Part shown: piece by piece, positions 7,457 to 53,140 of the stretch | Position numbering within the stretch: the first letter of the stretch is position 1 | Layout of the letters: every line of letters starts with the position of its first letter | Origin: a virus | Taxonomy: Duplodnaviria > Caudoviricetes | IMG/VR virus record: IMGVR_UViG_3300008625_000012 | Coordinates: 1 to 63,273 of that record | Length of the DNA: 63,273 bases | Strand: one strand, 5' to 3' | Made by a program: the position numbers and the translations under genes | Notes under the pieces: model-generated | What the model was told of the DNA's origin: nothing | What the model saw: the letters and a program-made list of their open reading frames with translations, nothing else | Database searches by the model: none

Positions 7457-7465
7457 GGGCAAGGC

Positions 7466-13822: not shown

Positions 13823-13829
13823 ATGCGAC

Positions 13830-13865: not shown

Positions 13866-13866
13866 T

Positions 13867-15259: not shown

Positions 15260-15265
15260 TTTCTC

Positions 15266-15484
15266 ATGCACACCAATCTGATTAAGAAAGACGGTAAATG
15301 GACTGTCGAGTTGATCGGGGGTGACGATGAAGAGACTTTGGTTAAAACCTTCTCTGGTCGTGAACACGCGACAAACCAGATCAGGATGTGGGGTAACGGG
15401 CAGTCCGATATGCCGGTCCTGAAGAAAAAGGGAGCCGCCAAGAAGAAGGCGGCTCCCAAGAAGGCCAAGCCAAAGAAGAAGTAA
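15266..15484 (+). CDS. small protein with Lys/Ala-rich tail
   Basis: GAGG SD; KKKGAAKKKAAPKKAKPKKK. Confidence 0.6.
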   Translation: MHTNLIKKDGKWTVELIGGDDEETLVKTFSGREHATNQIRMWGNGQSDMPVLKKKGAAKKKAAPKKAKPKKK

Positions 15485-15508
15485 CGCTAACATAGAGAGG
15501 ATATAAAG

Positions 15509-31820: not shown

Positions 31821-32828
31821 ATGGGTAAGGGCGGCGGCAGCGGCGGCGGACAAGCGCCAGCGCCACCCCCGTCGACATCAACGGTAAATCAGTCTAATCT
31901 GCCTGATTACGCCAAGCCCTTCTTCACACGCCTCATGGAGCGCGGCGAGGAAGAAAGCAACGCGCCTTACATCCCGTATGAGGGGCAGCGGCTTGCTGAC
32001 TTCAGTTCAGACACACAGGCTGGGTTTCAGGACATCCGCGACATCGCCTCATCGGGTGTCCCAGCGGCCTTCACTAATGCTGAAACTGCCTTAACTGGCA
32101 TTGCTGGACAAGACCCGCTGGCGCAGCAGGCGCAGTTTGCCGACACCGGAAATTTCACCGACGCTGGTGTGGCTGCAAGCTACATGAACCCCTACACACA
32201 AAACGTGCTGGACACGCAACAGGCGCGTCTCCAGCAGCGGTTCAACGAGCAACAGCTTGGCCGTGAGGCGCAGGCTGTGCAGGCCGGGGCGTTCTCAAAC
32301 GACAGGCGCAACGTTCAAGAGGGCATCGCCCAGCGTGAGTTCGATATCCAGCAGAACGAAATCGAACAGCGGGCATTGCAGGCAGCATATGAAAGCGGTG
32401 CCAACATCTTCAATGCTGACCGCGCAGCAGACATTCAGAACAGGGCCTTAAACACAGAGGTGTTTGCTGGCAACCAGCAGCGCGGCATCGAATATGATCG
32501 CAATGCACTGGCCGCAGCAGAGCAGCTTCGGGCGCAGGGCCTTGCAAGCGATGAGTTGTCCTTCGGACGGGCTAAAAGTCTGGCTGGTGTCGGTGGTGCG
32601 TTTGACGACCAGACGCAGCAGTCACTGGACATTGGTTACACGGACTTCATCAACCAGCGTGATTTCCCACGCAACCAGTTAAATTATTACGGCGGTATCC
32701 TGCATGGTGTGCCGATTTCGCCACAACAGGAAACAACCACGTTCCAAGCTCCCCCGTCACAACTGAGCCAGCTTCTTGGCCTTGGTGTTGGTGGGCTTGG
32801 GTTGGCGCAGGCATTATCAGCGGGCTAG
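31821..32828 (+). CDS. DNA ejection protein
   Basis: MGKGGGSG start, YMNPYTQNV, AGAF, Q-rich helices, hydrophobic G-rich C-terminus. Confidence 0.7.
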   Translation: MGKGGGSGGGQAPAPPPSTSTVNQSNLPDYAKPFFTRLMERGEEESNAPYIPYEGQRLADFSSDTQAGFQDIRDIASSGVPAAFTNAETALTGIAGQDPLAQQAQFADTGNFTDAGVAASYMNPYTQNVLDTQQARLQQRFNEQQLGREAQAVQAGAFSNDRRNVQEGIAQREFDIQQNEIEQRALQAAYESGANIFNADRAADIQNRALNTEVFAGNQQRGIEYDRNALAAAEQLRAQGLASDELSFGRAKSLAGVGGAFDDQTQQSLDIGYTDFINQRDFPRNQLNYYGGILHGVPISPQQETTTFQAPPSQLSQLLGLGVGGLGLAQALSAG

Positions 32829-34947: not shown

Positions 34948-37900
34948 GTGCAGCGGTATGAAATAGACGGTGTGGGCCTTATGGACTTCCCCGACGAAAT
35001 GTCGGAAGAAGACATCGCGGCCACCATTGAAACAGAAATTCTCCCAAGCGCCGACCTTGAAAACCCCGACCCTGAGATGGTCGCGCTGCGGCCTGACCTA
35101 TTTCCAGACATCAACCGTGGGTCACTCTTCGGCGGCATCGGCAGCGGTGCGGAGCGCCTAAGTAGGGTTCCTGAAAACATCGGCGCAGCCGTAGGCCGGG
35201 ACGAAGAAGACCTCTTCTCTCTCAAAGACCAGATGGCTGCGGACGATCAAGATCATATATATCGGGCCAATCTTGACGACGCTGTGGGGCAGTTCCAACG
35301 TGGTGATTACACCGGCTCTGCCAGCACGTTCTTTCTGGACATCATCCCGCAGACGCTGGGCGAGAGCCTACCTGATTTAGGCATCATGGCCTCTGGTGCT
35401 TTCGCTGGCGCTAAGGCTGGTGCCGTGTTCGGCGCTCCCGGCGCAGCTATCGGCGCAGCCGTAGGCGGCATCCTTGCTGGAACACCGTCGTTTGTCGGCC
35501 AGCATGTTGAGCGGCAGGTCAGGGAAGGAAATATCACCGACCCGGAGGACATCGACACTGCCAGTGCTGTGGGCACTGGTGTTGTCTCTGCCGCCCTTGA
35601 ATACGCCATATTCCCAATCCTTGCCCGCACCCCCGGCATCAGGGCGTTAAAGCCAGAGACCATCTCTGCGATGCTCAAGAGAGGGGCCAATCTTCTTTCC
35701 ACCAAGGAGGGGGCAAAAATACTTGGAAAAGCCTCTCTTATCGGTGGGGCGACAGAAACGGTCACTGAAACAGGCCAACAGGTTCTTGAGAGAGCGCAGG
35801 CTGGCCTGACCATTGACCCTGAAGACGAGCAGGCGCTTGGTGAATACATAGAAAGTGCGGTTCTTGGCGGTGCCTTGGGCATGATCTTCGGTGCCGGTGC
35901 TGGCACTTTTGGTGTTGCAAGGACACGTAAGGCTGGACACGCCTTCAACGAGATGGCCGAAGAACAAAGAATAGAGCTAGAGGCTGCGGCGGCGGAGGCG
36001 GAGCGCAGGAGAGCCATCGGCCTTGGGATTATCCCAAACCAAGAAATCTTATCCTTGACTGCCCGCCCAGAGCTTATGCCAGACACAGACCTGATGCCTG
36101 TGGAGGACGGTGACCGCGACCTGAATATGTCGGAGGCTGTTGAGGGTGGTGTTAACAGGACTGAGGCCCAATTCAAAAGAGACGCCGACCAACGCCTTAT
36201 TGACGAGGCGATGGACCCCAAGAACGAAAATCAAACGCCAGAACAGGCCAATGCAGCAAGCCTGTTTAAGGCGGCACGCGAGAGCCTACATGGGATGCGC
36301 TTCACTCCAGCGGAACTGGAGACGGCAGGGGCATCCAATATTGCTCAGGCAGTAGCTGATATGGAGGCCGGTCAAGGCAACCTCACCGTCGAGCAGGACG
36401 GTTTCACCATCGAAGAACTGGAGGAGCAGGGCCGTGTCCGTGGAGTGGACCCTGAAGTGCTGTCTGGTGAGCTACAGGCGCTGCGTCAGCTTCGTCGCCC
36501 TGAGACAGAGCGTGTCAATAATGTCACAGAGCCTGAGATCATCGAACTAGCCAAAGAGAAGAACGTCCTCACCGGCACCAAGTCTTTTGATGCGCTGGTG
36601 AAATACGTCACTGGCGCAGACAGGCTCTCCAAGGCATCGCCGTTCCGTCTGGCTCTTATGAGGGACACCCTTCGGCGGGTCGCGCCGTTTGAGACCCTAG
36701 ACAACCTCCTTGATGTTAGGGAAGAGAACTACACCCACGAAGATTTCAACAGGGCAGTTCAGATCGTTCTCAACAACAAGCAGGGTAAGGGAAAGACACC
36801 CAAGTTTAATAGGGCAGAACTGAAGCGCAATTTCCCAGACCTCAATATGAAGGACATCGCGCAGATACGTGAAGAGATGATACGTATCGGCCTTGTGAGA
36901 CAATCTGACGGTAGGGTGACGCATGAACTGATGCGGCCAGAGTTTATTCCACCGACCACGCCGGTCAAAGGTCCGACGCCTATCATCGAAGAGGGCCGTG
37001 AGGTTGATTACGAGGTAAGAGGCTCAGACGGTAAGCATGTGGTTGTCGCAAAAGAGCGCACCCCTGACCCCACCAAGACTGGAAAGATACAGGAAACGCA
37101 CATCCCGTTTGAGGAGGTCATCAGCATCCATGATGATGCCGATGGCGCTGAACTGGCGGCGCATAAATACCGCAACGGCCTGTCGTCTGTTAATCCAGAT
37201 GGGACGTATGCCAAACGTGAAGACGACGCTGGCCTGACTGATGTTGATCTTCGCTCTACCACGCCAACCGAAAAAGAAGTGCGGCAGTACAAAGCGTGGA
37301 AGGACCGCACCGGCAGGGCTGGGGTCCGCCTGACAAGTCAGCAGGTCAAGAACATCACGGAGGCCCTTAACAACAACAAGACGCAGCAGCTTCTGGCCGC
37401 TGTTGGAATTAATGCAGAGGTCGTTCAAGACCTTTCAAGGTTCCTGACGCAAGAAGAAAAGGACGCTGATGTCAGGTCGCCAGAGGGTGCGTGGGACAGC
37501 AACAACGAGGTCATACTGCTGGCAATCGACACTGCCATTGATGGTCTTGGGAACAGCATAACAGAAGAGGCGCTTGAGCAGGCCGCCATGGAAAACCTAG
37601 CGCGGGTTTTGTCTCATGAGCAAATCCACGCCCTCCGTGAAAAGAAAATCATCTCAGAAGATGACTTTAGGGTGCTTAAAAGATACGTGGAGAAAACTCG
37701 CCGCCCGCCTGAGTTATCAGCCCACCTTGGATGGACGCCGGGTGTTCTTCCAAACATGACCTACCTTGAAGAGGCGAGGATTGTTTATGCCGGTGAAGTA
37801 GCCAAGAACGTAACTAGGCTTAAGGCCAGAGGTAAATCAAGGGCGGAAATAAAAAGATACAACGAGGACTTTCTCAGGGAAGAGGCGGTTGCTGAAGCGT

Positions 37901-40900
37901 TCCGTGACTGGGCGAAGGACAAGACGCTTATCAACGGACGGCCTGAGAGTATTTTCCGAAAAATAATCAGGTTCATCATGACCCTTGGCGGGCTGCTCTA
38001 CGACAACGGCGTAAGATCAGCAGAGGACATCTTCAACCTCATCGAAGAGGGCACCTTGGATGGAGGCCCCGCCACCACTGCTGGCCCCCCCGACATTGAG
38101 ACCGGCCCCAAGTTCTCCATCGCTGGCCCAGCCATCAAGTATGACGGCAAGGTCTACTCTGTAAAGAACCCCATCGCCAACCACAACCAGATAGACATTC
38201 CGGGCGTCGAGAGCGTCTTTGAGGCAGAGAAGAGCGGCAGGCCGTTTATTGAGGGCTTCATAACTGACCGGGGCAAGTTCATCAGGCGTGACGATGCGTT
38301 TGATGAAGCTGCCGTCAGTGGGCAACTGACCAAAGAAGGCCAGACGGCGCGGCGGTATATGCAGCACCCCGACCTCATCACGCCGTATATCCGGTTCAAC
38401 GATGAGAGTGACGCCAGTTATTCCATAGCGCCTAACTTTGACGCCCTTGGGTTCTCAAGTCAGGCGTATGAGGCGGTTCGCAACTTCGGTGAGGAGAGCG
38501 GCACCGGGAAGATGTGGAAGCAACATCTGGCTAAAAACGCCAAGCCAGCGGAGCTTGACACTATCGTCGGCCTTGAGGAGATGCTTGCTGGCGTCGAGGG
38601 GCGCATCAGCAAGAAAGACATGCTCGACTTCATCAACCAGCGTGGCCTGAAGCTGGATGAGGTTGTGTTGGGCACAAAGAAGTTTGAGCTGCCAGACGGC
38701 ATGAAGATCATTCCCTTCGGGAGCCTAAACGTAGAGCAGTTCGATAAAGTTAGTGATCTTGGCGGCTTTAGGGATGACCCAAGAACCGGCTTGGTTATAG
38801 AGGAATTTTACGTTTTTCAAGGTGGGCGCTATGTCACAAGTTACCCGACCCGTGCAAACGCTGAACAAGACCTTCATCAAGTCTTAGCGGGGAGCGGCGG
38901 CACCAAGTTCCGTCATTATACTCTCCCCGGAGGAAGGAGCCACAGAGAGTTCTACATAACCCTCCCCAGCCCAACCACATCGGATGAGTTCGCATCATTC
39001 AACACCACGATTAAGGATTGGCTGGTTCCACCCTCGCATCGTATTGAAGACGCAGAGGCCGACAACCGACTTGTTCTAAGGGTGCGTGTCAGTGATCGCA
39101 TTATTGACGGTAAGAGCGTCCTGTTTATAGAGGAGCTACAGGGAGACCGTCAGCAAGCGGCAAAGGTGAAGGGCGGGTTTCAGTTGGAGAAAACTTTCAA
39201 CGACCTGTCTCCAGCAGACCAGACGATCTACAACCGTATGCAAGAGCTGGAAAAGATTGGCGCTCGAACAAATCAACAAGAGCGCGATGAATATGTAGCC
39301 CTTGCAGAAGCCGCCGGTGTCACTCCCGCTAGAGGCTCTATCGCCATGCTTGAAGGCGAGAGCCGCATACCGCCTATCCCGTGGGAGAAAGACAGCGAGT
39401 GGGGCCGGTTGGGTATGAAGCGGGTGATAATGAAGGCGGTTGAAGAAGGCTACGACAGTGTCGCATGGACGCCGGGTGCAACCCAGATAAGCCGCTACGA
39501 AGGCTCCGGCCATGTCATCAACGATGTTTTGTTAATGAATATGTCTTCTAGCTTTTCCGCAGAAGACGTAAAAATCATCACCAAGAAAGTGCGTGACGAA
39601 GGGCCGACTACATATACGCTGTCTGTTGAGGGCGTTGCAGGTCTAGAAGAGCCTATTCGCGCCCACCTGCTTACGGACGGCACATGGATAACGGCGCACA
39701 CAAGGAAGTCGCTTACGCTGGGGAGTGATGTGCTTGAATTAGGGAGGGTGTCCTCAATAGAAGATGTTGAGGCCATAATCAGGCACATGCTCAATGAGGA
39801 GCCTGAATTTTCTGGCGATCATTACGCGGTGGTGATTACAGACGAAGTGGGCGTGGACGTCTCACTTCCTAACGGTGGTCACTATGCAACAGAGAATGAA
39901 ATACGTGCGTTCTTAGGCGGCAAGGTTGCCAATGAACTCTTCAGTGAAGAAAACAGGAAAAAACTGGACAACAAAGAGCATGTTGAACTTAACAACGCAG
40001 ACACCACCGTTGGCGGTAAGGGGCTGGTTCAGTTTTATGACGACATTCTCACTAGCATTGCAAATAAGATCGGCAAGCGGTTCGGTGCGAAAGTCAAGCG
40101 AGGACGCCTTGAACGCAGGGGCGGTGGAAAATTCGACGCAATCCCCGATGCCGTTAGGATGAAGCGTGAGATGTGGCGTCTCCCCATCCCCAAGAAAATG
40201 AGCGACACCGTCAAGAAGGAGGGCTTCGCCAAGTTCTCCATTGCTCCACCAATAAACACGCGGGGCTGGAAGGACTGGTGGAAAGACAGCAAGGCTGTTG
40301 ACGGTGACGGCAATCCTATGGAGATGTATCGCGGGCTGCGTAGATACCCACATGCTGCCGGTAGACCGGTGCAGAAAGGCATCAGGTCCACGGAGAGCTA
40401 CACCTCAAGTACAGATGTGGCTAACATCTATGCATCAAGCCAAACTGGCGAACATGAATACGCCTTCACCACGGGGTCAAACATTAGAAAGGCGTATCTG
40501 TCTGTCCAGAACCCACTCGATTGGGCGAACGCAAGCGGTGCAGCTATAAACTTAGAGACAGTGGCGTCTCAGCTTAAGCTGTACAACGAATATGGGCACA
40601 TTGACCTTGATGGGGCCAAGGCCATCGGTGAGATACTGGACGAGCTTTCAACGCGAGAAAATATGGGAGTGATCGAAGGTAACTTCACCGCAGGAACCAC
40701 GTATGGCCTTACTGCGATTGACACGGCAGAGGCCGCTCAAGAGACATTTGATGAGCTTGAAATAAATCTCAAAGAGGCCCACCGCGTCTATGACGAAGAC
40801 CCATCGGTAGCGAACGGTAAAAATGTCGATACTGCGTCTAGAGAAATTACTGACTTCATGATGGCCGTGGAAATAGACGCTTATATACTGGCCGACCTTG

Positions 40901-43900
40901 AGCAGGTAACAGACTTAGCCAAAGCCGCTGGCTATGATGGTATCAAGCATAACGACGTTATCAACGCTGGCCTGCGGAGAGGGCAGGCACTTTTGGGAAA
41001 ATCTCCAGAGGAGTTGGAGGGCGTGGAGAGGTCTGGCAATGATCGCATCAATGTGACATGGCGACCCTTCCATGACTTCCAGTCCAAGTCACCATTCATC
41101 GACACCTTTGAAAGCGGCGAACTGGAGGAGAGCGGTGAGGCTAAGTTCTCCATCAGAGGCCCCGCCATCAAATATAAAGGGCAAGTCTACTCCTCCTCAG
41201 ATGTGAACGCCTCACACTACGAAATAGAGCTACCGGAGGGCGTTGACGTCTGGGATGCTGAGATAACGGACCCAAGTTACAAAGAGGGGTTCATGACCTC
41301 CAAGGGTCGTTTTGTTACACGCGAACAGGCGTTCGAGGAGGCGCGTGTAAGCGGCCAGTTGAACGCTCATGGTATAAACGCCAGCAAGGCGTATACGCCA
41401 GCCCTAATCACACCGTATATCCACACAGAGTTTAGCGGCGGCAAGTTCTCGTTGTCAGCGCCGACCATGATGCGCTACGCGGTGGACGTCAGGCGTCCCG
41501 GCAAGAAGACTATCACCAGACAGTTTATGGCCCCCAGCCTCACGGAGGCGCAGAAGATCGCCTACGGGTCAACGGCCTTAAATCGCGGTGCGTCTGAGCT
41601 AGTCAATATTAGATTAGACGACCCGGCGTTTGATGAGGGCGGGCACAAGAAATCCATCCGTGGGTGGAGAAGAAAATGGGACGCTGGAAACGACCAAGAG
41701 AAATACTTGGACGCCACATCATTTATCCGCATGTCCTCACGGGAGGACGACACAGAAATACCCGGTGTGGAAAATGCCATCGGCAGGATTTATGTCGGCC
41801 CCGACCCGTACTCGCTTGTTCTTATGAAGGGTCACGCCGATGAGTTCGGCAACGGCTTTGGTCTGGACCACATCGTTGACAAACTTGAGCGGTTCGACGG
41901 CGGGGCAGAGGAGTTCCGCGACAAACTTACCCAGATGATTGACGCTATGGGGCAGAAGAAAGTTCGTCTGTTCCCCTACAGACCGCAAAACCGTGAGACG
42001 TCAAACAAGCTGGACTGGACAGTTCTCTGGAAAGACTACGACGGCGGCGGGACGCTCTACCGCATGGGCGTGGAGTTGTGGACATCAGACAAAGACAGGG
42101 TCACCTACGCAGCCATAACCACGTTCTTCCCGGTTGATGCCAAGGCAGAGGAGCGCGAGAGGGCGTCTCAGGCCAAAAGAGAGAGCAGCCGCCGCAGGAA
42201 AGAAGCGACGCAAGATCGCAAGAAGGGCGCAGCGCGGCGCTCTATAGCCCCCGCCATAGTTCCAGAAGGTGAGGTCGCCATAAGGGCCGTCTCGCGTGAG
42301 AAAAGCGGCATATACAAAGGCGCACCCATTGCCAGCGGTATGACCCCACGGGAAGTGACCAAGCTGGTCAATAAGCTCACCAAGCAAGCATTGTCTGAAG
42401 TGGCTGTGTATGAGGAAAGCCAGTACTGGTATGAGAACGCTGGCATGGTGATACGGACCCTCTCCTCTGGCAACCAGAAGGTCATGGAAGACATGTTGCG
42501 TATTGTCGCCTACCTGTCGGCTGACAACTCACTTGGTTCCAATATTGCCGCAGCAATAGATACCGCGTATGACATCGCCGTGAATGGGAATATGACTGTT
42601 GGGCGGGGAAGATACATAAACGTAGCCCTTGAGCGCCTCCCGTTGGCAATTGCCGCAGAAAAGTTCGACAGTAGGCTCGACGGTGTAAGCGACAAGGTTA
42701 TGTCCTTCTACAGGAACATGCGCGACCCGGCCTATGGCACTAATGATTTTGCTGGAGAAAGCACGCTTGATAAATGGATGCACCGGGCCTTCGGCTTCAA
42801 AGTAACTGGGGATGAGAAATTTACACCAACGCAATACGCCTTTGGCCGGATGGTCATGCAGCGTGTGGCGAATAAACTTTCCAAGAAATTAGGAAGAACC
42901 GTCTTGCCGCGCCAAGCTCAGGCCATGATATGGACGGCAGAGCGCAACAAGGATGTCGAGCCAGCCAACGCAACGATGGTCGGGTTTGAGCATTATTTTG
43001 ACCGCCACGATGCCGTAATCACATGGGAAGCCAACCCGTCAGTCGTGACTGATCTGTTCCCTGAGATTGCCAGCCAGCCGATGCATGTGCAGAAGGAGTT
43101 CGCCAAACAAGCGTATGAGCTTATTACATCCGGGGGGCAAGACATCCTGCTCCACAAGATCGGCGGCGCTCCACTATACGCATCCATGCCCGGAACAGGC
43201 GGCTACGCTGGGGATGTATCGCCAAACATCACCACACACGTTATGTTGCCGCGCTCTGCCGACAAGTCTTACGACACAACAGCCGCTGACTTGTATGCCG
43301 CTGTGATTGGATATATATACAATCAGAACGCGGTGGCATGGCATCGGGCAGACCCGACGCTTAAGGCCAGTGTGTCCAACGTTGGCGTAAGGGCAGTGGT
43401 TGAAAGCGGCAGTGTTGACCCGACAGAGCTTTACAGGTTCGTCCGCACCCACATGGCATCGTCTGACTTCTCGCTTGTTCCAACGCTGGACGGTAAGATG
43501 GAGTTCCGGTTCATAAACTTTAACTCAAAGACAAAAGACAACCCTGATGGGATGCCTGACAGGTCGTATGTTGCGGCCTTGGAAAAAGCCCTGAAGAGGT
43601 TCCCCGGAAACGTCACGTTCAGAATTAAAGATTTTAAGTCCACCGGCGGCTACATAGAAAACAACTGGCAGGAGGATAAAAATGGCGAAGGTTATAAACG
43701 ACGGATCAGCGAAGCCGGACGACCCGATCTACTCAACTGGGCCGATGGTCGGAGGCAAGCGTTTCACAAACTTGTTAAAGACTGGCAGGCAAAAATCGAC
43801 CCCAAAGCAGCCCTTAGCAGAGATGGTGGAAGAGATGTTAATCAGGGAGACGTCCAAGAAATCCAACTCCCGCCGATAGAGCCTGACGGCACTGTCAGGC

Positions 43901-46900
43901 TCACCCACTGGAGCGAGAGCGAAAAGATCAAGAACGTGCTTCCCAAGAGGCACGGCACAGGCGTCCCCGGCGAAGAAAGTCGTCGCAAGCGCACATACCC
44001 CAAAGAGTGGGTAGACCGCTCATACTACGGCGTCGGCGTCGGCAAGCCCGGTGGCTACAAGAAAGAATTAAAGCTGGGGAGCGAGACGTATGTGGGGTAT
44101 GTCCCGTTTGAGAAATTATATGACATCAACGGTGACGATGGCGTTTCCCCCGGCAGTATCAAGGCCAAGGCAGCGGCCAAGTGGGGTAATGACGTTGGCG
44201 GTAGGATAACTGAGGTTGAGAAGCTGGCGAAGGCCGCTGGCTACCACGGTTACTGGGGCCACCACCCCAACGGCATTGTCGCAGCAATGTTCAGGCCGCT
44301 GAAGGTCGAGAAGACAGAGCCGGAAGGCAAGTTCTCCATTGCCCCGCCAATAGACAGCGCGGCGTTCTGGAGCTGGTTTTCGGAGAGCGAGGTCATGAAC
44401 GAAGACGGCACTCCATTGCTGCTCTACCACGGCACCCCGAAGGACTTTGATGAGTTCGATACGGATATTATTTTCTTCTCTGAAAGCCCAGCGGTGGCTG
44501 AGTTTTTTGCTGACCTCCACATGGAAAATCGGGAAAACACCGAGGACGCGCAGCGGATTATCCCCGCGTATCTGTCAGTTCAGAAGCTGTGGGATTTCCG
44601 CAAGGAAGAACACATAGACCTAATCAGGGAGTGGGCAAACGACCAAGAGGAACTTGTCGGGCAGGAGGGCTACGCCAAGCTACTTATAAGAGACGCCTCA
44701 AGGGGCGACTGGGACACAATTGAAGACCCTGATTTCTTGGATTTCATACGGGAGAGGGGGTTTGACGGCTTCACCGTTATAGAGATCAACTCTAACTTTG
44801 CTGATACGCTTGAAGCGGACGACCCAAGGCGGAGCTTCTTGGCCGTCAACTACGGAGTTTTCTCGCCCTCTCAGGTCAAGTCTCCGTTCAACGAAGACTT
44901 CGACGTGAATGACCTCAAGCACTCCATTGCCCCGCCCCGCAACAGGACGGCACCACCGCCATCCGCTCCAGCCGCGCCTCCTGCCCCCCCAACCCAGCCC
45001 GCCACTGTTGATGAGGATGCATTTATAAGAAGTTTCACTGAGGCCGACAGGACGATCTGGAAAAGAATGAAAAACGCCATAAAGAGGCAGCTTGCTCCGG
45101 GCGGCGTTCTTCCAAGGATTGCCTTCGATCTGAAGCTGTTCCGCGACAGTAAATTACGTGTGGTGGACGACATCGCAGCGCGGACGCTAAGAACGATGGA
45201 GGTCGCAATGAAAAGGGTCTTCCGCAGGCCCTATGAAAAACTTACTGATGAGGAACTGATTGCCATTAACTCCGCGCTGCGTGGAGACAGCCTTGGTGAT
45301 TTACCGGTTCCGATCAAAGAGGCTGTGGCAAAGATGCGCTTGGACATCGACGCCATGTCTGATGAGTTCATCGCTATCATGGAGGCCGACATCGCTGAAC
45401 TGGAGGCTCAGAACAACCCTGACGCCGCTGCGAGGGCGCAGCTTCTCAGGGATGTTGTGGTTGGGAACAAGGGTGAATATCTCACGCGCTCATATAAGAT
45501 GTTCGATGACCCCACATGGTTCAGTAAAATACCAGAAGGCGTGCTGCGTACGGCCCACCGGTATCTTGTCACGCAGAACGGTGGTGATGTTGAGGCAGCC
45601 AGCCGTGTATTATCGACGCTGGTGAAGGGCGACAGAACGGCCTACATCGGAGTGTCGGCGCTCATAAAAGAAAGCACTCTTGGCGCAAAAGACCTGACCA
45701 TCCTCATGAAGCGAAAGAATATTGCCCCGGAAATACGGGCGGTGATGGGCGAATACACTGACCCGATGCACAACTATGCCCGGACAATGTTGAAGATGTC
45801 CCGGCTCATCTATAACACCAACTTCCTCAACAGCCTCAAGGAGGCTGGGCTTGGTGAGTTCATGTGGGAAGAGAACGAACGCCCAGCAGAGGCGACGGTT
45901 CAGATGGCTGGCACCAACTCCAAGGTTCTTGAGCCGCTAAACAATCTCTGGACAACGCCAGAGGTCAAAGCCGCGTTCAAGGATATTCTGGGTAAGTACA
46001 ATCTCCCCAACTGGATTGGAAACTTAGTCGGCTTGAACGGCGTGGTGAAGGCGGGCAAGATTGTTTACTCGCCGCCCACACAGATCAGAAACGTTCTATC
46101 CGCCACGTTCTTCGGTATCATGGGTGGCGGGGTAAAAGTGAAGGAGATTATCCCGGCAGCAGCCATGATCTGGGACCAGATAAACGCCAGAGAGGGAAAC
46201 AGGGCGGCGGCGTATCGCCACTATGTGGACGTCGGCCTGTTGCAGGATAACCCCAACGCTGGCTTGGTGCAGGACTTGATGCAAGACGGAAGCAGTCTTC
46301 TTTCTGCGCTTGAGTGGAAGATGGAGAGCGTGCTTGGTGAAAAGACAGCCGCGACCATAACCGGCAAGGCAAAGAAATTTAACAAGATTGTCACCAACTT
46401 CTATCGTGGCGGCGATGATGTGTGGAAGATCATTATCTTTGAAAGCCAGCTTGCCGATTACATGAACGCCACTGGCATGGCCCGTGAAGAAGCAGAGCCG
46501 ATTGTTGCGAAGCGCGTCAGGGACACGGTGCCCACCTATTCACTGGTCGGCCCCGGCATGAAGCGTCTTGGTAGGTTCCCGCTTCTTGGGCCGTTCGTGG
46601 CGTTCTCTTCTGAGGTCATACGCACCAATAAGAACAACCTCAAACTGATCGCATCAGACCTTAAAGACCCGCGCCTCAAGCGGCTGGCCTACAAGCGTAT
46701 TATCGGAACAATAGTCGCTCACGCATGGGCCAAGGCGCTTATGACCTTATCGCTGACCGCGTTCGGCATCAGTGACGACGAGGAAGAAAGTGTGCGGCGG
46801 CTAGGTGTTGGGCCGTGGTCGAAAAACGCTGACTTATTGTTCTTGGGGCGTGACAAAAACGGCCAGCTTGAGACAGTCGATTTGTCGTTTGTTGACCCAT

Positions 46901-47706
46901 ACAATATTTTCCACAAGCCACTCACAGCCATTCTTCGTAACCAGCCTTGGGAAACAGGCTTTGCGGAAGCTGTGGCCGAGACATTCATGCCGTTCGTGCA
47001 GCCTGATATTGCTGCCAGCGCAATCTACGAGGCAGTGTCTAACCAGAAGATACGTAGTGGTGCGCCAATATATAACTCGGAGGCACCGGGCAGCGAACAG
47101 GCGGCGGCAATCGCTGAACATCTGTTCTTCCAGATGGGTCCGGGCGTTCTCCTGCCGACACGTAAAATAGTGAAGGCCCTGAAGGGTGACCGCGACCCAA
47201 CCGGAAGAACGTATGATATGAACAACGAGGTTATGGGGATGTTCGGCCTTCGGATTAAAACGTTCGACCCGAAGTATTCTCTGTATTTCAGGGTGGGGGA
47301 TTTCACTGAGGCTTTGGGTAAGGCCAACTCGTATCTCTACAACGTGGCGGCTGATATAGACCCGGTGTCGTCTGGGGATTTAGAGGAAGCCTTCTCGCAA
47401 GCCAACAAGATACGCCTACGTGCCTACGACGACATGGCTGAGATTATCAGCGCGGCAAAAAGCACCGGGCTTAGTTACAATGACATCAAGAGGGTTTTAC
47501 AGGTGTCTGGCGTATCGAAGAAATACGCCAATGCGTTGGCCCGTGGCAAGGAAGCGCCCAAGTGGAAGATCGGGAAGACCTTCCTCAAGGGCGCTACCAA
47601 GCGTGCCAAGTTGTTGATCGATAGAGAGACCGCTACTGAGCTGCGGAAACGACGTCGGGCTGTAAAATCTTTTGCACGGACGTCGCAGCGGCAAACTCTT
47701 CAATAA
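34948..47706 (+). CDS. giant (4252 aa) polyvalent ejection protein: HExxH metallopeptidase, ADP-ribosyltransferase-like and other effector cassettes
   Basis: G/A-rich N-terminal hydrophobic region; HEQIH 37615-37629 with downstream EEAVAE; PLLLYHGT..FFS..AYLS..GFDG..QVKS ART signature; repeated KFSI linkers; last gene of the structural arm. Confidence 0.85.
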   Translation: MQRYEIDGVGLMDFPDEMSEEDIAATIETEILPSADLENPDPEMVALRPDLFPDINRGSLFGGIGSGAERLSRVPENIGAAVGRDEEDLFSLKDQMAADDQDHIYRANLDDAVGQFQRGDYTGSASTFFLDIIPQTLGESLPDLGIMASGAFAGAKAGAVFGAPGAAIGAAVGGILAGTPSFVGQHVERQVREGNITDPEDIDTASAVGTGVVSAALEYAIFPILARTPGIRALKPETISAMLKRGANLLSTKEGAKILGKASLIGGATETVTETGQQVLERAQAGLTIDPEDEQALGEYIESAVLGGALGMIFGAGAGTFGVARTRKAGHAFNEMAEEQRIELEAAAAEAERRRAIGLGIIPNQEILSLTARPELMPDTDLMPVEDGDRDLNMSEAVEGGVNRTEAQFKRDADQRLIDEAMDPKNENQTPEQANAASLFKAARESLHGMRFTPAELETAGASNIAQAVADMEAGQGNLTVEQDGFTIEELEEQGRVRGVDPEVLSGELQALRQLRRPETERVNNVTEPEIIELAKEKNVLTGTKSFDALVKYVTGADRLSKASPFRLALMRDTLRRVAPFETLDNLLDVREENYTHEDFNRAVQIVLNNKQGKGKTPKFNRAELKRNFPDLNMKDIAQIREEMIRIGLVRQSDGRVTHELMRPEFIPPTTPVKGPTPIIEEGREVDYEVRGSDGKHVVVAKERTPDPTKTGKIQETHIPFEEVISIHDDADGAELAAHKYRNGLSSVNPDGTYAKREDDAGLTDVDLRSTTPTEKEVRQYKAWKDRTGRAGVRLTSQQVKNITEALNNNKTQQLLAAVGINAEVVQDLSRFLTQEEKDADVRSPEGAWDSNNEVILLAIDTAIDGLGNSITEEALEQAAMENLARVLSHEQIHALREKKIISEDDFRVLKRYVEKTRRPPELSAHLGWTPGVLPNMTYLEEARIVYAGEVAKNVTRLKARGKSRAEIKRYNEDFLREEAVAEAFRDWAKDKTLINGRPESIFRKIIRFIMTLGGLLYDNGVRSAEDIFNLIEEGTLDGGPATTAGPPDIETGPKFSIAGPAIKYDGKVYSVKNPIANHNQIDIPGVESVFEAEKSGRPFIEGFITDRGKFIRRDDAFDEAAVSGQLTKEGQTARRYMQHPDLITPYIRFNDESDASYSIAPNFDALGFSSQAYEAVRNFGEESGTGKMWKQHLAKNAKPAELDTIVGLEEMLAGVEGRISKKDMLDFINQRGLKLDEVVLGTKKFELPDGMKIIPFGSLNVEQFDKVSDLGGFRDDPRTGLVIEEFYVFQGGRYVTSYPTRANAEQDLHQVLAGSGGTKFRHYTLPGGRSHREFYITLPSPTTSDEFASFNTTIKDWLVPPSHRIEDAEADNRLVLRVRVSDRIIDGKSVLFIEELQGDRQQAAKVKGGFQLEKTFNDLSPADQTIYNRMQELEKIGARTNQQERDEYVALAEAAGVTPARGSIAMLEGESRIPPIPWEKDSEWGRLGMKRVIMKAVEEGYDSVAWTPGATQISRYEGSGHVINDVLLMNMSSSFSAEDVKIITKKVRDEGPTTYTLSVEGVAGLEEPIRAHLLTDGTWITAHTRKSLTLGSDVLELGRVSSIEDVEAIIRHMLNEEPEFSGDHYAVVITDEVGVDVSLPNGGHYATENEIRAFLGGKVANELFSEENRKKLDNKEHVELNNADTTVGGKGLVQFYDDILTSIANKIGKRFGAKVKRGRLERRGGGKFDAIPDAVRMKREMWRLPIPKKMSDTVKKEGFAKFSIAPPINTRGWKDWWKDSKAVDGDGNPMEMYRGLRRYPHAAGRPVQKGIRSTESYTSSTDVANIYASSQTGEHEYAFTTGSNIRKAYLSVQNPLDWANASGAAINLETVASQLKLYNEYGHIDLDGAKAIGEILDELSTRENMGVIEGNFTAGTTYGLTAIDTAEAAQETFDELEINLKEAHRVYDEDPSVANGKNVDTASREITDFMMAVEIDAYILADLEQVTDLAKAAGYDGIKHNDVINAGLRRGQALLGKSPEELEGVERSGNDRINVTWRPFHDFQSKSPFIDTFESGELEESGEAKFSIRGPAIKYKGQVYSSSDVNASHYEIELPEGVDVWDAEITDPSYKEGFMTSKGRFVTREQAFEEARVSGQLNAHGINASKAYTPALITPYIHTEFSGGKFSLSAPTMMRYAVDVRRPGKKTITRQFMAPSLTEAQKIAYGSTALNRGASELVNIRLDDPAFDEGGHKKSIRGWRRKWDAGNDQEKYLDATSFIRMSSREDDTEIPGVENAIGRIYVGPDPYSLVLMKGHADEFGNGFGLDHIVDKLERFDGGAEEFRDKLTQMIDAMGQKKVRLFPYRPQNRETSNKLDWTVLWKDYDGGGTLYRMGVELWTSDKDRVTYAAITTFFPVDAKAEERERASQAKRESSRRRKEATQDRKKGAARRSIAPAIVPEGEVAIRAVSREKSGIYKGAPIASGMTPREVTKLVNKLTKQALSEVAVYEESQYWYENAGMVIRTLSSGNQKVMEDMLRIVAYLSADNSLGSNIAAAIDTAYDIAVNGNMTVGRGRYINVALERLPLAIAAEKFDSRLDGVSDKVMSFYRNMRDPAYGTNDFAGESTLDKWMHRAFGFKVTGDEKFTPTQYAFGRMVMQRVANKLSKKLGRTVLPRQAQAMIWTAERNKDVEPANATMVGFEHYFDRHDAVITWEANPSVVTDLFPEIASQPMHVQKEFAKQAYELITSGGQDILLHKIGGAPLYASMPGTGGYAGDVSPNITTHVMLPRSADKSYDTTAADLYAAVIGYIYNQNAVAWHRADPTLKASVSNVGVRAVVESGSVDPTELYRFVRTHMASSDFSLVPTLDGKMEFRFINFNSKTKDNPDGMPDRSYVAALEKALKRFPGNVTFRIKDFKSTGGYIENNWQEDKNGEGYKRRISEAGRPDLLNWADGRRQAFHKLVKDWQAKIDPKAALSRDGGRDVNQGDVQEIQLPPIEPDGTVRLTHWSESEKIKNVLPKRHGTGVPGEESRRKRTYPKEWVDRSYYGVGVGKPGGYKKELKLGSETYVGYVPFEKLYDINGDDGVSPGSIKAKAAAKWGNDVGGRITEVEKLAKAAGYHGYWGHHPNGIVAAMFRPLKVEKTEPEGKFSIAPPIDSAAFWSWFSESEVMNEDGTPLLLYHGTPKDFDEFDTDIIFFSESPAVAEFFADLHMENRENTEDAQRIIPAYLSVQKLWDFRKEEHIDLIREWANDQEELVGQEGYAKLLIRDASRGDWDTIEDPDFLDFIRERGFDGFTVIEINSNFADTLEADDPRRSFLAVNYGVFSPSQVKSPFNEDFDVNDLKHSIAPPRNRTAPPPSAPAAPPAPPTQPATVDEDAFIRSFTEADRTIWKRMKNAIKRQLAPGGVLPRIAFDLKLFRDSKLRVVDDIAARTLRTMEVAMKRVFRRPYEKLTDEELIAINSALRGDSLGDLPVPIKEAVAKMRLDIDAMSDEFIAIMEADIAELEAQNNPDAAARAQLLRDVVVGNKGEYLTRSYKMFDDPTWFSKIPEGVLRTAHRYLVTQNGGDVEAASRVLSTLVKGDRTAYIGVSALIKESTLGAKDLTILMKRKNIAPEIRAVMGEYTDPMHNYARTMLKMSRLIYNTNFLNSLKEAGLGEFMWEENERPAEATVQMAGTNSKVLEPLNNLWTTPEVKAAFKDILGKYNLPNWIGNLVGLNGVVKAGKIVYSPPTQIRNVLSATFFGIMGGGVKVKEIIPAAAMIWDQINAREGNRAAAYRHYVDVGLLQDNPNAGLVQDLMQDGSSLLSALEWKMESVLGEKTAATITGKAKKFNKIVTNFYRGGDDVWKIIIFESQLADYMNATGMAREEAEPIVAKRVRDTVPTYSLVGPGMKRLGRFPLLGPFVAFSSEVIRTNKNNLKLIASDLKDPRLKRLAYKRIIGTIVAHAWAKALMTLSLTAFGISDDEEESVRRLGVGPWSKNADLLFLGRDKNGQLETVDLSFVDPYNIFHKPLTAILRNQPWETGFAEAVAETFMPFVQPDIAASAIYEAVSNQKIRSGAPIYNSEAPGSEQAAAIAEHLFFQMGPGVLLPTRKIVKALKGDRDPTGRTYDMNNEVMGMFGLRIKTFDPKYSLYFRVGDFTEALGKANSYLYNVAADIDPVSSGDLEEAFSQANKIRLRAYDDMAEIISAAKSTGLSYNDIKRVLQVSGVSKKYANALARGKEAPKWKIGKTFLKGATKRAKLLIDRETATELRKRRRAVKSFARTSQRQTLQ
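38110..44937 (+). repeat. nine copies of a (K/R/S)-(F/Y/K/H/R)-S-(I/L) linker, mostly followed by A-P, in the giant protein
   Basis: codon starts 38110 KFSIAGP, 38416 SYSIAP, 40231 KFSIAPP, 41143 KFSIRGP, 41443 KFSLSAP, 41647 KKSIRG, 42235 RRSIAP, 44329 KFSIAPP, 44917 KHSIAPP; DNA AAGTTCTCCAT in four copies. Confidence 0.8.
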
Positions 47707-48445
47707 CGAGAACAAACTCTGCCGGAAGATACGACAAGGTCTTGTCCTGTATCTCGTTGGGCACGCCGAATATTGTCTCAGCAATACCTCCAGTGATACA
47801 GGCCACGGTGTCAGTGTCGCCACCGATAGAGACAGCATTGCGGATGGCGTCTTCAAAGCTCTCCGCTTCCAAGGCACAGGTGATGGCCTGTGGCACCGTT
47901 CCCTGACACGACACATCAAATTCGTAGTCAGGGCGTATCTCATCCACTGACCGTGAGAGGTCATAATCAAAGTTCTCTTCGATGTGCTGCCTGATGTCTT
48001 CAGGCGACGCACCGCAGCGAGCAAGCCATATAGCCACGGCTGTGGCCTGTGCCCCCTTGATGCCTTCAGGATGACTGTGGGTCACCTCCGCAGACCGCTT
48101 CGCTAGATCACGCACACCGTTTTCATCAGGGAGGTCAATGAAGCCAACCGGACTAACCCGCATGGCTGACCCGTTGCCCCAACTGTCGTAGGGCTTGCGC
48201 TCCCACTGCTGTGCCCAGTCGAGCATCATGGAGCCGTAACCCCTGTTGGGGAACCTGAGCGTGTACGTCCCGATGGCTGAAGCGAGGTCTTTGTCTTCGC
48301 TCAACAGCCAGTCTGCGATGGCGATGGTGTGGACTGTGTCGTCGGTGAACGTGCATTCTTCACCAAACAACTCGAAATCCTTGGTCTTGATATTGTTCCA
48401 TTCGTAGATGGAACCGATGATGTCTCCTGTGATTGCTCCAATCAT
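47633..48445 (-). CDS. ADP-ribosylglycohydrolase (DraG/ARH family)
   Basis: GAITGDIIG, FTDDT, GNGSAMRVSP, THSHPE, GGDTDT. Confidence 0.95.
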   Translation of the reverse strand: MIGAITGDIIGSIYEWNNIKTKDFELFGEECTFTDDTVHTIAIADWLLSEDKDLASAIGTYTLRFPNRGYGSMMLDWAQQWERKPYDSWGNGSAMRVSPVGFIDLPDENGVRDLAKRSAEVTHSHPEGIKGAQATAVAIWLARCGASPEDIRQHIEENFDYDLSRSVDEIRPDYEFDVSCQGTVPQAITCALEAESFEDAIRNAVSIGGDTDTVACITGGIAETIFGVPNEIQDKTLSYLPAEFVLVIEEFAAATSVQKILQPDVVSAAQ

Positions 48446-51191: not shown

Positions 51192-52052
51192 TTATTTCCC
51201 TTTCGTTGAAACGGCGGTTTGGTGTTCCTTAAACATGGCAACGAGATTTTCGTGCAGCTTCGGGTCGCCACCCTTCAGGAGTTCAATGGCCTTGATGTTC
51301 TTCGACCAGAAGGCCCGTGTGTCTTTGACGTTTTTGCAGTGCGGGATAAACTTCTCAAAGACGGTGTAGATGAGTTCCCAGTTCGCCACGTCCGGGTCTT
51401 TGATCTCCCGCAGTGTGACGGTCCCATCCTTATCTTTCTCAACGTAGTCGTCGGCGTCGAAGTCAGCCCCATTGCCCGGTTTAGGGGGTTCCTCACCTAC
51501 CGGAGGGGGTGTGACTTCAGCCTCTGCCGCGCTCTCAGCGGCCTGTTTTTCGGCCTTTTCGAGGTTCTTCGGCGGCTCCACCTTCTCAGGGGTCTCGCCG
51601 GTTCCGAAGTCCTGATCTGCTGCGTCGGCATCTTTCTCGCCGGTCACCACCTTAAACGCTTTCCGCATGAACAGCTTCTCAGCGTAGCTGGCAGCCGACC
51701 CCGATGTCTGGGCACCCTGTAGTGGGTGGTAGATACTGATACGGTCATACACGGGGACCACTTCGCCAGTTCCATGAAACATGGAAAACACGTAATCGAA
51801 TTTGATGGCCTGTTTGTTGTGCCCGACATCCACGATCTCAGAACTGACCTCTTTGCAGAACCACGACAGGTCGTTTGCCGTCGCCACCTGCGCCACGATC
51901 TCGTAATATTTATCGATGGACACGTAGGCGTAGTTCTGAAACTCGTTGGTGCCTTCCTTCCCCAGCACACCAAGAGACTTCTGCACTGCCAATACTGCTA
52001 GGGCAATGCTCTCCGGTATGTTGGCGTCACTGATAATAACTTCGTCGGTCAT
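51192..52052 (-). CDS. erf: ERF-family ssDNA annealing protein
   Basis: KEGTNEFQNYAY.S.D, QTSGSAASYAEK, EKDAD. Confidence 0.8.
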   Translation of the reverse strand: MTDEVIISDANIPESIALAVLAVQKSLGVLGKEGTNEFQNYAYVSIDKYYEIVAQVATANDLSWFCKEVSSEIVDVGHNKQAIKFDYVFSMFHGTGEVVPVYDRISIYHPLQGAQTSGSAASYAEKLFMRKAFKVVTGEKDADAADQDFGTGETPEKVEPPKNLEKAEKQAAESAAEAEVTPPPVGEEPPKPGNGADFDADDYVEKDKDGTVTLREIKDPDVANWELIYTVFEKFIPHCKNVKDTRAFWSKNIKAIELLKGGDPKLHENLVAMFKEHQTAVSTKGK

Positions 52053-52184
52053 TCTTTTTCTCCTTCAAGATGGTCGCCTATTGCTGCGAGAGCGTGAGCG
52101 ATGTCTATAAAAACTAATCTTCGGCACAGTTTTCCGAAATTATCTTCCTTGTCCAGCCAGACGATATAGCCGTTTTCAGCATGT

Positions 52185-53096
52185 TCAATCCTTGCCTTTC
52201 TCATCCCACTTCTCCTTTTCTTTCTGCCACTGGCCGCACCACGGGGCTACCCCGCACCAGTTTCCTGAACATCGCGCCGGTGCCTTTTGGCGCAGGACAA
52301 CTTCATAGTCGTCCGGGTTTTTCATCTTTTTAAGCGCGGCCTGAGCCTTCTTCTCCGTATCCTCCACCTTTGCGGCACGCTGACCGCCCTTCTTCATGAC
52401 CGCGTATGTGCCGGGATACAGCCACCGATCTCTGTCGGTGCATAGGGGGAGGTCTTCTCCCCACTCCTGAGCGCGGCGTGCATCCTGATGAGCCGCCACC
52501 CGGCCCTCAATAAACTCCCTTTGTTCGTCTTCTGTCCATAGTGGGATGTCCACTGGGACCGATGAGGCTGGGGGATAATTCTCCTGCTTACCGACAAGCC
52601 CCTGCGTAAAATCCTTCACAAATATCACCACCTGAAGCTCATCAACGTAGAGGTCTTGGCATGTTCTTAAGAGGTAGGCGTAGCAGTTCAACTGCTCTTC
52701 CCAGTCGAGGAAATCGCCCTTCTGATATTTGTAAGCCTTGGTGAATTTGTAGTCTGTGATGGAAACCATGTTCCCCTTACGGACCACGTCTATTCCACCT
52801 TTGACTTTCCACCCAGCCACGTCAATAATGAGATTGAGTTCGGCTATATGTTCCTGATCTGCTCCTTCTTCCATAATTTTATGGATGACGGTTCCAAGAA
52901 TTGCCCACAACCGATCAGAAACATCCTCTTCGATCTCATGAAAATGTTTCTTTCTGAGGATGGATATGCGCGGTGATTTAATGATCTCAGTGACGGACAT
53001 GTCAGCTTCCCCACGCGTTTCAGCGTACTCAGCGCGCTGCTTCTCGTAGAGATTTATGAGCGTCTGAGGCAGGTCGTATTTGTTTGTGAGTTTCAT
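52185..53096 (-). CDS. Cas4-like PD-(D/E)XK exonuclease
   Basis: MKLTNKYDLP, SVT.I..PR, GT.IH, G.ID, TDYK, QLNCYAYL, C-terminal Cys cluster. Confidence 0.8.
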   Translation of the reverse strand: MKLTNKYDLPQTLINLYEKQRAEYAETRGEADMSVTEIIKSPRISILRKKHFHEIEEDVSDRLWAILGTVIHKIMEEGADQEHIAELNLIIDVAGWKVKGGIDVVRKGNMVSITDYKFTKAYKYQKGDFLDWEEQLNCYAYLLRTCQDLYVDELQVVIFVKDFTQGLVGKQENYPPASSVPVDIPLWTEDEQREFIEGRVAAHQDARRAQEWGEDLPLCTDRDRWLYPGTYAVMKKGGQRAAKVEDTEKKAQAALKKMKNPDDYEVVLRQKAPARCSGNWCGVAPWCGQWQKEKEKWDEKGKD

Positions 53097-53118
53097 TCTT
53101 CCCCCTTCTCCAGTGCCA

Positions 53119-53140
53119 GAACACACATAGAATATACACT
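53119..53140. promoter_or_regulatory. divergent intergenic site with GAAC-N7-GAAT box and -10-like TACACT
   Basis: GAAC 53119-53122, GAAT 53130-53133, TACACT 53135-53140. Confidence 0.45.

Follow-up and report, generated by a model that had tools for sequence, protein, structure and literature searches.

The record IMGVR_UViG_3300008625_000012 is a complete virus record of 63,273 bp from an uncultured marine phage and was analysed here at its full length (the window). PHROG and Pfam scans of the window's open reading frames (ORFs) showed genes for a terminase, a portal, an HK97-type capsid protein and virion proteins on the plus strand. The 3' end of this structural block consists of a homolog of DNA-ejection proteins (31821-32828), an ORF of 717 amino acids (aa) and, as the last gene, a giant ORF of 4252 aa. 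We investigated the giant protein encoded there and a short peptide of the form K-F-S-I-A-P, which is repeated along its middle part.

The sole families recognised by Pfam in the giant protein are ART-PolyVal (PF18760), a polyvalent-type ADP-ribosyltransferase (ART), and DUF7178 (PF23802). A predicted zincin peptidase and at least four further unrelated cassettes are joined to these on a single chain, which is the make-up of a polyvalent protein. The setting also corresponds to that of a delivered polyvalent protein: the gene belongs to a phage, it follows the ejection-protein homolog, and the two terminal scaffolds match virion-structural PHROG families. The giant protein adds a new member to the class of polyvalent proteins. 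Because of the scaffold annotation and the gene order we infer that it is probably packaged in the virion and ejected into the host. No LPD family exceeded the Pfam cut-off in the giant protein; LPD38 is present in the distant homologs P0016, P0020 and P0022.

A preliminary description of this DNA had reported nine related linkers downstream of a zincin-type peptidase signature. All nine were found in frame 0, starting at aa 1055, 1157, 1762, 2066, 2166, 2234, 2430, 3128 and 3324, with the peptides as quoted there, and unit sizes of 102, 605, 304, 100, 68, 196, 698 and 196 aa follow from these positions. The two parts of the signature, HEQIH (aa 890-894) and EEAVAE (aa 978-983), are indeed present upstream of the first copy. 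For the DNA word AAGTTCTCCAT, said to be shared by four copies, the window contains exactly four matches, starting at 38110, 40231, 41143 and 44329. The motif is also missing from the scaffolds as described, with no significant matrix score in aa 1-1054 or aa 3340-4252. In the following list the scores are those of a position matrix trained on 29 motif instances from homologs only, block endpoints are the ends of homology blocks shared with related proteins, and pLDDT is the predicted local distance difference test score of structure models.

34948-47706, plus strand: giant ORF, 4252 aa, GTG start, probable virion-associated polyvalent protein
38110-38130, plus strand: junction 1, KFSIAGP, aa 1055; score 25.4, 7 block endpoints, pLDDT about 35
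38416-38433, plus strand: junction 2, SYSIAP, aa 1157; score 15.7, 6 block endpoints
40231-40251, plus strand: junction 3, KFSIAPP, aa 1762; score 31.2, 4 block endpoints
41143-41163, plus strand: junction 4, KFSIRGP, aa 2066; score 15.0, 1 block endpoint
41443-41463, plus strand: junction 5, KFSLSAP, aa 2166, weak variant; score -2.4, 11 block endpoints, pLDDT about 34
41647-41664, plus strand: junction 6, KKSIRG, aa 2234, weak variant; score -1.5, 2 block endpoints, coil, pLDDT about 80
42235-42252, plus strand: junction 7, RRSIAP, aa 2430; score 9.0, 9 block endpoints, pLDDT about 28
44329-44349, plus strand: junction 8, KFSIAPP, aa 3128; score 22.0, 16 block endpoints
44917-44937, plus strand: junction 9, KHSIAPP, aa 3324; score 10.3, 8 block endpoints

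Such a number of copies is far above expectation. KFSI occurs four times compared to 0.04 expected, and none of 5000 residue shuffles reached four. A loose pattern was observed nine times compared to 0.34 expected, the maximum in 5000 residue shuffles being four. When the homolog-trained matrix was run along the giant protein, the nine sites took ranks 1 to 9. Seven of them scored at least 9.0, with 8.9 marking the 95th percentile of shuffle maxima, and the copies at 2166 and 2234 lie below this value. In homologs the position of the latter, junction 6, is occupied by K[FY]S[IV]R[RKS]W. The strict core [FY]S[IV]A[PG] is found four times in the six frames of the whole window, each time in the giant ORF, and the loose pattern had no match in the 17 other window ORFs of at least 300 aa (8169 aa in total, capsid and portal included). 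The motif is a real signal and is confined to the giant ORF.

The claim that each copy falls at a domain boundary stood for the most part. Every copy has at least one homology-block endpoint between -10 and +12 aa, and the copies at 1055, 2166 and 2430 lie in stretches with a pLDDT of 28-35, although the copy at 2234 lies in coil of higher confidence. For the central region aa 2150-3345 were folded as one model of 1196 aa, in which the ART region reached a pLDDT of 30-40; the copies that could be assessed are those at 1055, 2166, 2234 and 2430. Since three of these four show low pLDDT, they are probably located in flexible linkers. A single confident unit, aa 2173-2429 with a pLDDT of about 90, is enclosed by the junctions at 2166 (34) and 2430 (28), and the coil with junction 6 (aa 2234) belongs to this unit. 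A Foldseek search of the aa 2150-3345 model against the PDB returned nothing at E<=0.001.

Homologs, breakpoints and junction DNA

Apart from the record of the window itself, a search of 5.8 billion proteins returned 24 relatives with lengths of 2374-4230 aa. In each of the 14 closer relatives [KRSQ]-[FY]-S-[IV]-A-[PG] recurs two to five times within the middle part, and the ten distant ones carry none or one. In an alignment of 50 unique motif instances from 15 family proteins the serine is invariant (50/50). K, R or S occupies position 1 in 48 of the 50 instances, and F or Y occupies position 2 in 39. Position 4 reads [IV], and the A and P after it are found in 35 and 32 instances, respectively. 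No conservation is seen over the 15 residues upstream of the motif, where G, P, D and E are abundant.

The scaffolds of the homologs align end to end, and the middle part is a mosaic in which the same cassettes occur in differing orders and numbers. We therefore analyzed the distribution of homology-block boundaries in relation to the motif. When 15 proteins were compared all against all, 22% of the 517 block starts were located at most 5 aa from a motif, compared to 2% of random positions, and the modal offset between block and motif was 0 for starts and +5 for ends. Within aa 1000-3400 of the giant protein, 64 of 115 block endpoints fell between -10 and +12 aa of the nine copies, where 9.9 were expected. 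Since block endpoints pile up on the motif, the middle of the protein consists of shuffled cassettes set off from one another by the KFSIAP peptide. This bears out the cassette reading of the preliminary description: the motif is kept in 14 homologous giant proteins, and the breakpoints of cassette gain, loss and reordering map onto it.

Cassettes of the ART type located at or near the start of a protein offer a comparison. Ten of 13 inspected have no motif ahead of them, and the remaining three (P0060, P0167 and P0147) are preceded by a motif-like string. As such N-terminal cassettes are mostly motif-free, the motif belongs to the junctions and not to the cassette fold. We also considered the LPAPE repeats of L007, L008 and L010 as a junction motif, which turned out to be a local low-complexity patch.

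The preliminary description had further proposed that the motif acts as a short DNA homology through which cassettes are swapped. This idea is supported at the level of codons. In the window seven of the nine motif serines are encoded by TCC, compared to 14% of the serine codons of the gene (P=3e-5), and the four KFSI copies use the same codons for K, F and S (P=3e-4). Among 45 unique junctions from 15 genomes TCC was found 21 times, where 8.0 were expected. All seven AGY serines come from two genomes, in which they fill every copy (L001, 3/3; L043, 4/4). The class of the serine codon, TCN or AGY, is thus uniform within each of the 15 genomes (permutation P=5e-6, a value that is anti-conservative because some of the genomes are closely related). 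Since the peptide is kept while the codons differ between genomes, selection acts at the protein level; since the codons agree within a genome, the junction DNA is copied or homogenised. The homogeneity of the junction codons fits insertion or duplication of cassettes through the junction.

The window encodes an Erf-like single-strand annealing protein and an exonuclease (51192-53126, minus strand). The short homologies at the junctions would be possible substrates of this phage recombination pair.

Cassettes, scaffolds and neighbouring genes

The central region is made up of eight interchangeable cassettes: two ART-like ones, one with DUF7178, two copies of a 100-aa module, and others.

38110-38415, plus strand: S1, 102 aa, paralog of S4
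38416-40230, plus strand: S2, 605 aa, with a block boundary inside at aa 1517-1544 and a weak phrog_7348 match
39550-39564, plus strand: possible decayed junction SFSAE, aa 1535-1539, coinciding with 6 block endpoints (aa 1517-1544)
40231-41142, plus strand: S3, 304 aa, divergent ART-like module, ART-PolyVal 18.1 bits (cut-off 31.2)
41143-41442, plus strand: S4, 100 aa, paralog of S1
41443-42234, plus strand: S5 (68 aa) and S6 (196 aa), predicted single folded unit, aa 2173-2429, pLDDT about 90
42235-44328, plus strand: S7, 698 aa, DUF7178 (PF23802) at aa 2488-2668, 32 bits (cut-off 27), with a block boundary inside at aa 2946-2964
44329-44916, plus strand: S8, 196 aa, polyvalent-type ADP-ribosyltransferase, PF18760 at aa 3151-3317, 59.2 bits (cut-off 31.2)

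S1 and S4 share 49% identity over 94 aa (E=1e-27), S3 and S8 share 26% over 126 aa (E=4e-9), and in both cases the first aligned residue is the K of the motif. By itself S3 is not assignable to ART-PolyVal because its score lies below the cut-off. No Pfam or PDB match was obtained for S2, and the SFSAE string inside it may be a decayed copy of the motif. A search for stand-alone homologs of S4 with 64-205 aa found none. For S5-S6 the ESM Atlas gave a weak lead to PBECR nuclease families (scores 0.82-0.85). Sequence searches of the PDB with S2, S4-S6 and S7 returned nothing below E=0.1.

The cassette array is flanked by two conserved scaffolds.

34948-37284, plus strand: N-terminal scaffold, aa 1-779, 29-51% identical to 13 homologs over its full length
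44917-47703, plus strand: C-terminal scaffold, aa 3324-4252, 40-52% identity in homologs

A hydropathy scan showed Gly/Ala-rich hydrophobic segments at aa 159-183, 207-225 and 305-323 of the N-terminal scaffold and a further hydrophobic segment at aa 3918-3936 of the C-terminal scaffold, suggesting that both ends of the protein might insert into a membrane. The first 1054 and the last 929 residues match PHROG families annotated as virion structural protein (phrog_6958, 1.6e-15; C-terminal phrog_22602, 1e-57). In tblastn searches the C-terminal part was 27% identical to structural-annotated proteins of the Cellulophaga phages phi18:3, phi19:3 and phi13:2 and 36% identical to a protein of the Pseudoalteromonas phage vB_Pun_Y3. 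A megablast of the giant-gene region against deposited phages returned no match.

In vB_Pun_Y3 (L114) the homologous giant gene is annotated as two coding sequences, 2284-12549 and 12575-15658, with a gap of 25 nt. This may be a real fission or a break in sequencing or annotation. A cut at a junction was rejected as its cause, since the split falls within the start region of the C-terminal scaffold rather than at a motif, and the protein is motif-free.

Tail to tail with the giant ORF lies a gene for an ADP-ribosylglycohydrolase (47633-48445, minus strand; PF03747, 1.2e-37; phrog_6572, 5.8e-49), which shares the final 74 nt of the ART-bearing giant ORF. Its product could reverse or limit ADP-ribosylation by the injected ART cassettes. 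Directly after the capsid gene, a 188-aa ORF (13867-14433, plus strand) matches the sulfotransferase family PF03567 (4.5e-06, 27.4 bits, cut-off 22), which is unusual for a head module.

The peptidase domain and the role of the motif

Between the N-terminal scaffold and the first junction lie the peptidase domain and its tail.

37285-37986, plus strand: predicted zincin-like metallopeptidase domain, aa 780-1013, with HEQIH at 37615-37629 and EEAVAE at 37879-37896
37987-38109, plus strand: flexible tail from the peptidase to the first junction, aa 1014-1054, pLDDT below 50 over model residues 235-282

Zincins are marked by HExxH and a downstream Glu, and here HEQIH is accompanied by E978/E979 as candidate third metal ligand. 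The residues H, E and H and the string EEAxAExFRDW are invariant across 30 aligned peptidase sequences and are located on predicted helices. An AlphaFold2 model of aa 780-1075, made from this 30-sequence alignment, showed a core of helices and a sheet with pLDDT >90. The nearest solved folds by VIA-align are mostly zincins, all of them weak matches: anthrax lethal factor with Z 7.3 (root mean square deviation 4.7, 163 aligned), PPEP-2 with Z 6.7, PPEP-3 with Z 6.5 and ArdC with Z 5.0, every Z being <8. The neighbours of the model would accordingly be M34-type, peptide-cleaving zincins, at weak Z. The domain is predicted from signature and model to be a gluzincin-type metallopeptidase. A tblastn search of 50,697 phage records with the peptidase region gave no match and hence revealed no cultured phage carrying this type of peptidase.

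We next compared the occurrence of the motif with the type of peptidase. In 18 of 30 relatives, including clades at 22-30% identity, [FYML]-S-[IVLRKAM] is located 19-32 aa past the conserved Ile of the last peptidase helix; 18% of random 40-aa windows contain such a string (P=4e-7, uncorrected for relatedness). Six more of the 30 carry near variants, namely KFAIAGP, RSSISPR, KMHSRRAT and, in three of them, MQSRRAT. The residues after the serine vary by peptidase clade: IAP accompanies HEQIH, [KR]R accompanies HEMIH or HETIH, and AV accompanies HEIIH (L040). In the HEMIH/HETIH clade (L024-L033) the junction is often doubled in tandem as [KR][FY]S[KR]R[FY]S, for example RFSRRYSATAP, with instances at aa 1278-1286 of L025 and aa 2321-2329 of L029.

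In a survey of 247 proteins grouped by peptidase type, the ratio of observed to expected [KR][FY]S was 2.83 for the 60 proteins with this peptidase type, 1.55 for 102 proteins with another HExxH and 1.05 for 85 proteins lacking HExxH. Five permuted tripeptides showed no comparable enrichment in the 247 proteins. Relatives that share the C-terminal scaffold alone (L006-L019 and vB_Pun_Y3) showed no [KR][FY]S enrichment either. Out of 52 records found, we inspected six LPD38-type proteins of cultured phages (PTXU04, Vibrio 1.232.O, MinM2, phiARM81mr, Pascal and X14). These contain 0-2 [KR][FY]S each, without enrichment, so none is usable as a laboratory model. Four of the six lack HExxH, which fits the link between motif and HExxH.

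A self-processing polyprotein is characterized by a protease domain on the same chain, a conserved site repeated in accessible linkers, and cleavage at this site by that protease. The giant protein has a predicted protease domain and nine copies of a conserved site, and three of the four assessable copies show the low pLDDT of linkers. The most economical reading is that the motif would be the recognition and cleavage site of the peptidase acting in cis; on signature, model and placement we consider this about equally probable to be right or wrong. The basis is circumstantial: copies of the motif are situated in flexible linkers, the C-terminal tail of the peptidase carries the first of them (18/30), and enrichment tracks HExxH. 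Of the interpretation given in the preliminary description, the cassette and DNA parts are thus well supported and the cis-cleavage part circumstantially.

The N-terminal scaffold, with its hydrophobic segments and the predicted gluzincin-type peptidase, and the C-terminal scaffold enclose the cassette array. Each cassette has [KRSQ]-[FY]-S-[IV]-A-[PG] ahead of it, for the most part within a flexible linker. In the proposed mechanism, cutting by the peptidase would begin on its own tail and proceed to the remaining junctions, either within the capsid or after ejection, and would free the cassettes from two membrane-active scaffolds. The same junctions are also the sites of cassette exchange, and with its homogenised DNA the motif marks module boundaries in protein and DNA alike. 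Zincins of the lethal-factor type favour hydrophobic residues at P2 and P1'. By analogy with these enzymes, K-F-S|I-A-P would be a plausible, though speculative, cleavage register.

Several observations weigh against self-cleavage at the motif. L052, the closest relative in the peptidase region, reads KFAIAGP at its first junction (L052:2607-3521), with Ala in place of Ser. Two clusters of block boundaries, at aa 1517-1544 and 2946-2964, lack a canonical motif. The copy at 2234 is located in a confidently modelled stretch (pLDDT about 80) and is possibly inaccessible. Structural similarity to zincins is weak (Z 5.0-7.5), and a Foldseek search of the PDB with the peptidase model returned nothing at E<=0.001. 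In the single-chain AlphaFold2 model the tail aa 1014-1061, including junction 1, is disordered and undocked on the enzyme and its active-site cleft. MinM2 and X14 have HExxH and lack the motif, and all comparisons between motif and HExxH are confounded by common descent. According to the main text of Iyer et al. 2017 (J Bacteriol, PMC5512222), N4 vRNAP, ArdC and TraC1 undergo packaging or transfer without being cleaved, despite their zincin domain.

Alternatively, the motif could be a non-proteolytic docking or chaperone-binding element of a protein that stays uncut, for instance as a hydrophobic core with a basic flank recognised by a DnaK-type chaperone in refolding of the modules after tail passage, or in contact with the capsid or ejectosome. 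The disordered linkers, the basic-aromatic-small-aliphatic pattern and the undocked motif of the single-chain model all agree with such a role, as does the delivery of some zincin-bearing polyvalent proteins in uncleaved form as described in the main text of PMC5512222. We nevertheless regard it as unlikely: an invariant serine in 50 of 50 instances is unexpected for chaperone binding, there is no known partner, and neither the fixed copy on the peptidase tail nor the clade-linked change of the residues after the serine is explained.

Cleavage might also be carried out by another protease, either an unrecognised prohead protease during head maturation or a conserved host protease after ejection. 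Short repeated sites in internal and ejected phage proteins are frequent targets of the prohead protease, which in T4 is gp21. The placement of the motif in flexible linkers would suit such an enzyme, and the ORF at 10754-11758, between the portal and capsid genes, is without assigned function. However, the motif is found in no other window ORF of at least 300 aa, capsid and portal included, and PHROG and Pfam scans of the head-module ORFs recognised no protease family, two ORFs there being without assignment. Moreover, the motif is absent from relatives that share the C-terminal scaffold but have no zincin of this type, and the first copy has its fixed place on the zincin tail, which makes a separate protease quite improbable.

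A further explanation is that the motif is the footprint of recombination junctions, a microhomology carried along with the cassettes and lacking a function at the protein level. The identical 11-mer in four copies, the uniform serine codon class per genome (P=5e-6), the TCC excess (21/45, 8.0 expected) and the Erf-like annealing protein and exonuclease of the window would be accounted for in this way. On the other hand, the peptide outlasts the DNA: its serine is encoded by AGY in L001 and L043 and by TCN in the other genomes, the lysine by AAG or AAA, K can give way to R, S or Q, and I and V alternate. The shared DNA amounts to merely 11-14 nt with unconserved flanks, and related motifs are kept in proteins at 22-30% identity. 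A footprint lacking a protein-level function is therefore highly improbable.

That the motif has a structural part in the cassette fold, as an opening strand or cap inherited by every cassette from one ancestral module, has hardly any probability left: alignments of paralogous cassettes do start right at the motif and copy 2234 does lie in a confidently modelled region, but the cassettes after the motif are unrelated in sequence, it also occurs after the peptidase and ahead of the C-terminal scaffold, 10 of 13 N-terminal ART-type cassettes are motif-free, and three of the four assessable copies have a pLDDT of 28-35.

Two further roles were considered and rejected. A ribosome-stalling motif, suggested by likeness to arrest peptides and poly-Pro, was dismissed because the second Pro is unconserved in homologs, and self-cleavage by a serine nucleophile (N-to-O shift) because no conserved fold surrounds the motif.

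Related systems and a wider junction signal

To place the self-processing reading, we compared the giant protein with known systems, of which MARTX toxins and the junction motifs of polymorphic toxins are its nearest analogues in function. MARTX toxins have terminal regions for membrane translocation, central swappable effectors and an internal protease that cuts between the effectors. The giant protein resembles them in being a huge chain with conserved ends, a swappable effector middle and an internal protease, by which cleavage would take place. The MARTX protease is a cysteine protease activated by inositol hexakisphosphate and cuts after Leu, and the toxins are secreted by bacteria and act on eukaryotic cells. 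The giant protein differs in its zincin, its K-F-S-I-A-P site and its phage-particle carrier, and no sequence relation is known.

In polymorphic toxins, VENN (CdiA) and PxxxxDPxGL (Rhs) demarcate variable cassettes at recombination breakpoints, and the Rhs motif is also a site of autoproteolysis. Each CdiA or Rhs protein has a single junction and a single C-terminal toxin, whereas the giant protein has nine junctions and eight serial cassettes, with another motif and another protease. In viral polyproteins and in T4 prohead processing, short repeated sites are cut by a virus-encoded protease to release functional units. T4 uses a separate head protease and the site also occurs in capsid proteins, whereas the present motif is confined to one ORF that carries its own predicted protease.

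A further comparison is with the polyvalent proteins in the main text of Iyer et al. 2017 (PMC5512222), where zincin domains were proposed to process polyvalent proteins into functional units and where the ART Alt of T4 is given as packaged and injected with the DNA. Like the proteins described there, the giant protein is large and multidomain, is encoded beside virion genes and combines a zincin HExxH with a polyvalent ART and uncharacterised domains. It departs from that description in having a defined junction peptide mapped to cassette breakpoints and in that Pfam detected no LPD38. The main text of that paper gives no cleavage site or inter-domain motif, and its supplementary domain alignments may show the motif at domain edges. 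Full-text searches of the literature found no paper naming a cleavage or junction motif in polyvalent proteins and no relevant paper printing PDIRFS, DIRFS, DIRYS, KFSIAP, RFSIAP or NPDIRF. The junction motif, the mapping of breakpoints, the placement on the peptidase tail and the codon homogeneity are thus new, and the idea of zincin processing was already in print (Iyer et al. 2017).

A preprint on phage phi24B (bioRxiv 10.64898/2026.04.10.717836) describes gp47, an LPD38-type polyvalent protein of 2811 aa with a metallopeptidase domain, as abundant in virions by proteomics, absent from cryo-EM density and a proposed ejection protein. By that description gp47 and the giant protein are alike as giant polyvalent proteins with a metallopeptidase domain; gp47 was not among the homologs found by tblastn.

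A related signal is found beyond the window family. In a wider set of unrelated polyvalent proteins, retrieved through the ART cassette and without this peptidase type, many repeat a signal with the consensus F-D-P-x-N-P-D-I-R-F-S-x-A. P0037 has eight copies of the PDIRFSx type, P0040 has five PDIRFSR, and P0049 is among the proteins that repeat (N)PDIRFS. P0059 contains both RFSIAPP and PDIRFSVEPV. In the window family several junctions are preceded by F-N-x-D-F-D-x-x-D-x-K-F-S. Judged by resemblance, the window junction and the PDIRFS junction look like the same theme, and PDIRFS may be the general form of the window junction. It is possible, if on the doubtful side, that [KR]-[FY]-S is the core of a widespread polyvalent junction code, being both the cleavage site of co-evolving zincins and a DNA crossover point at which cassettes are inserted, duplicated and traded between phages, as in an integron-like system within a single injected polyprotein.

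Polyvalent proteins are among the largest and least understood weapons of phages and plasmids, and although their self-cutting by zincins has been proposed since 2017, no site had been named. A defined junction peptide makes this idea directly testable and provides a sequence rule for dividing giant ORFs into single effectors for functional screens. The homogeneity of the junction DNA suggests how effector arrays get rebuilt so quickly. If the junction code holds, the sequence itself could reveal effector boundaries and mature effectors in thousands of giant proteins of phages and plasmids that are so far uncharacterised, and if the PDIRFS junction works alike, the rule would reach far past this marine phage group.

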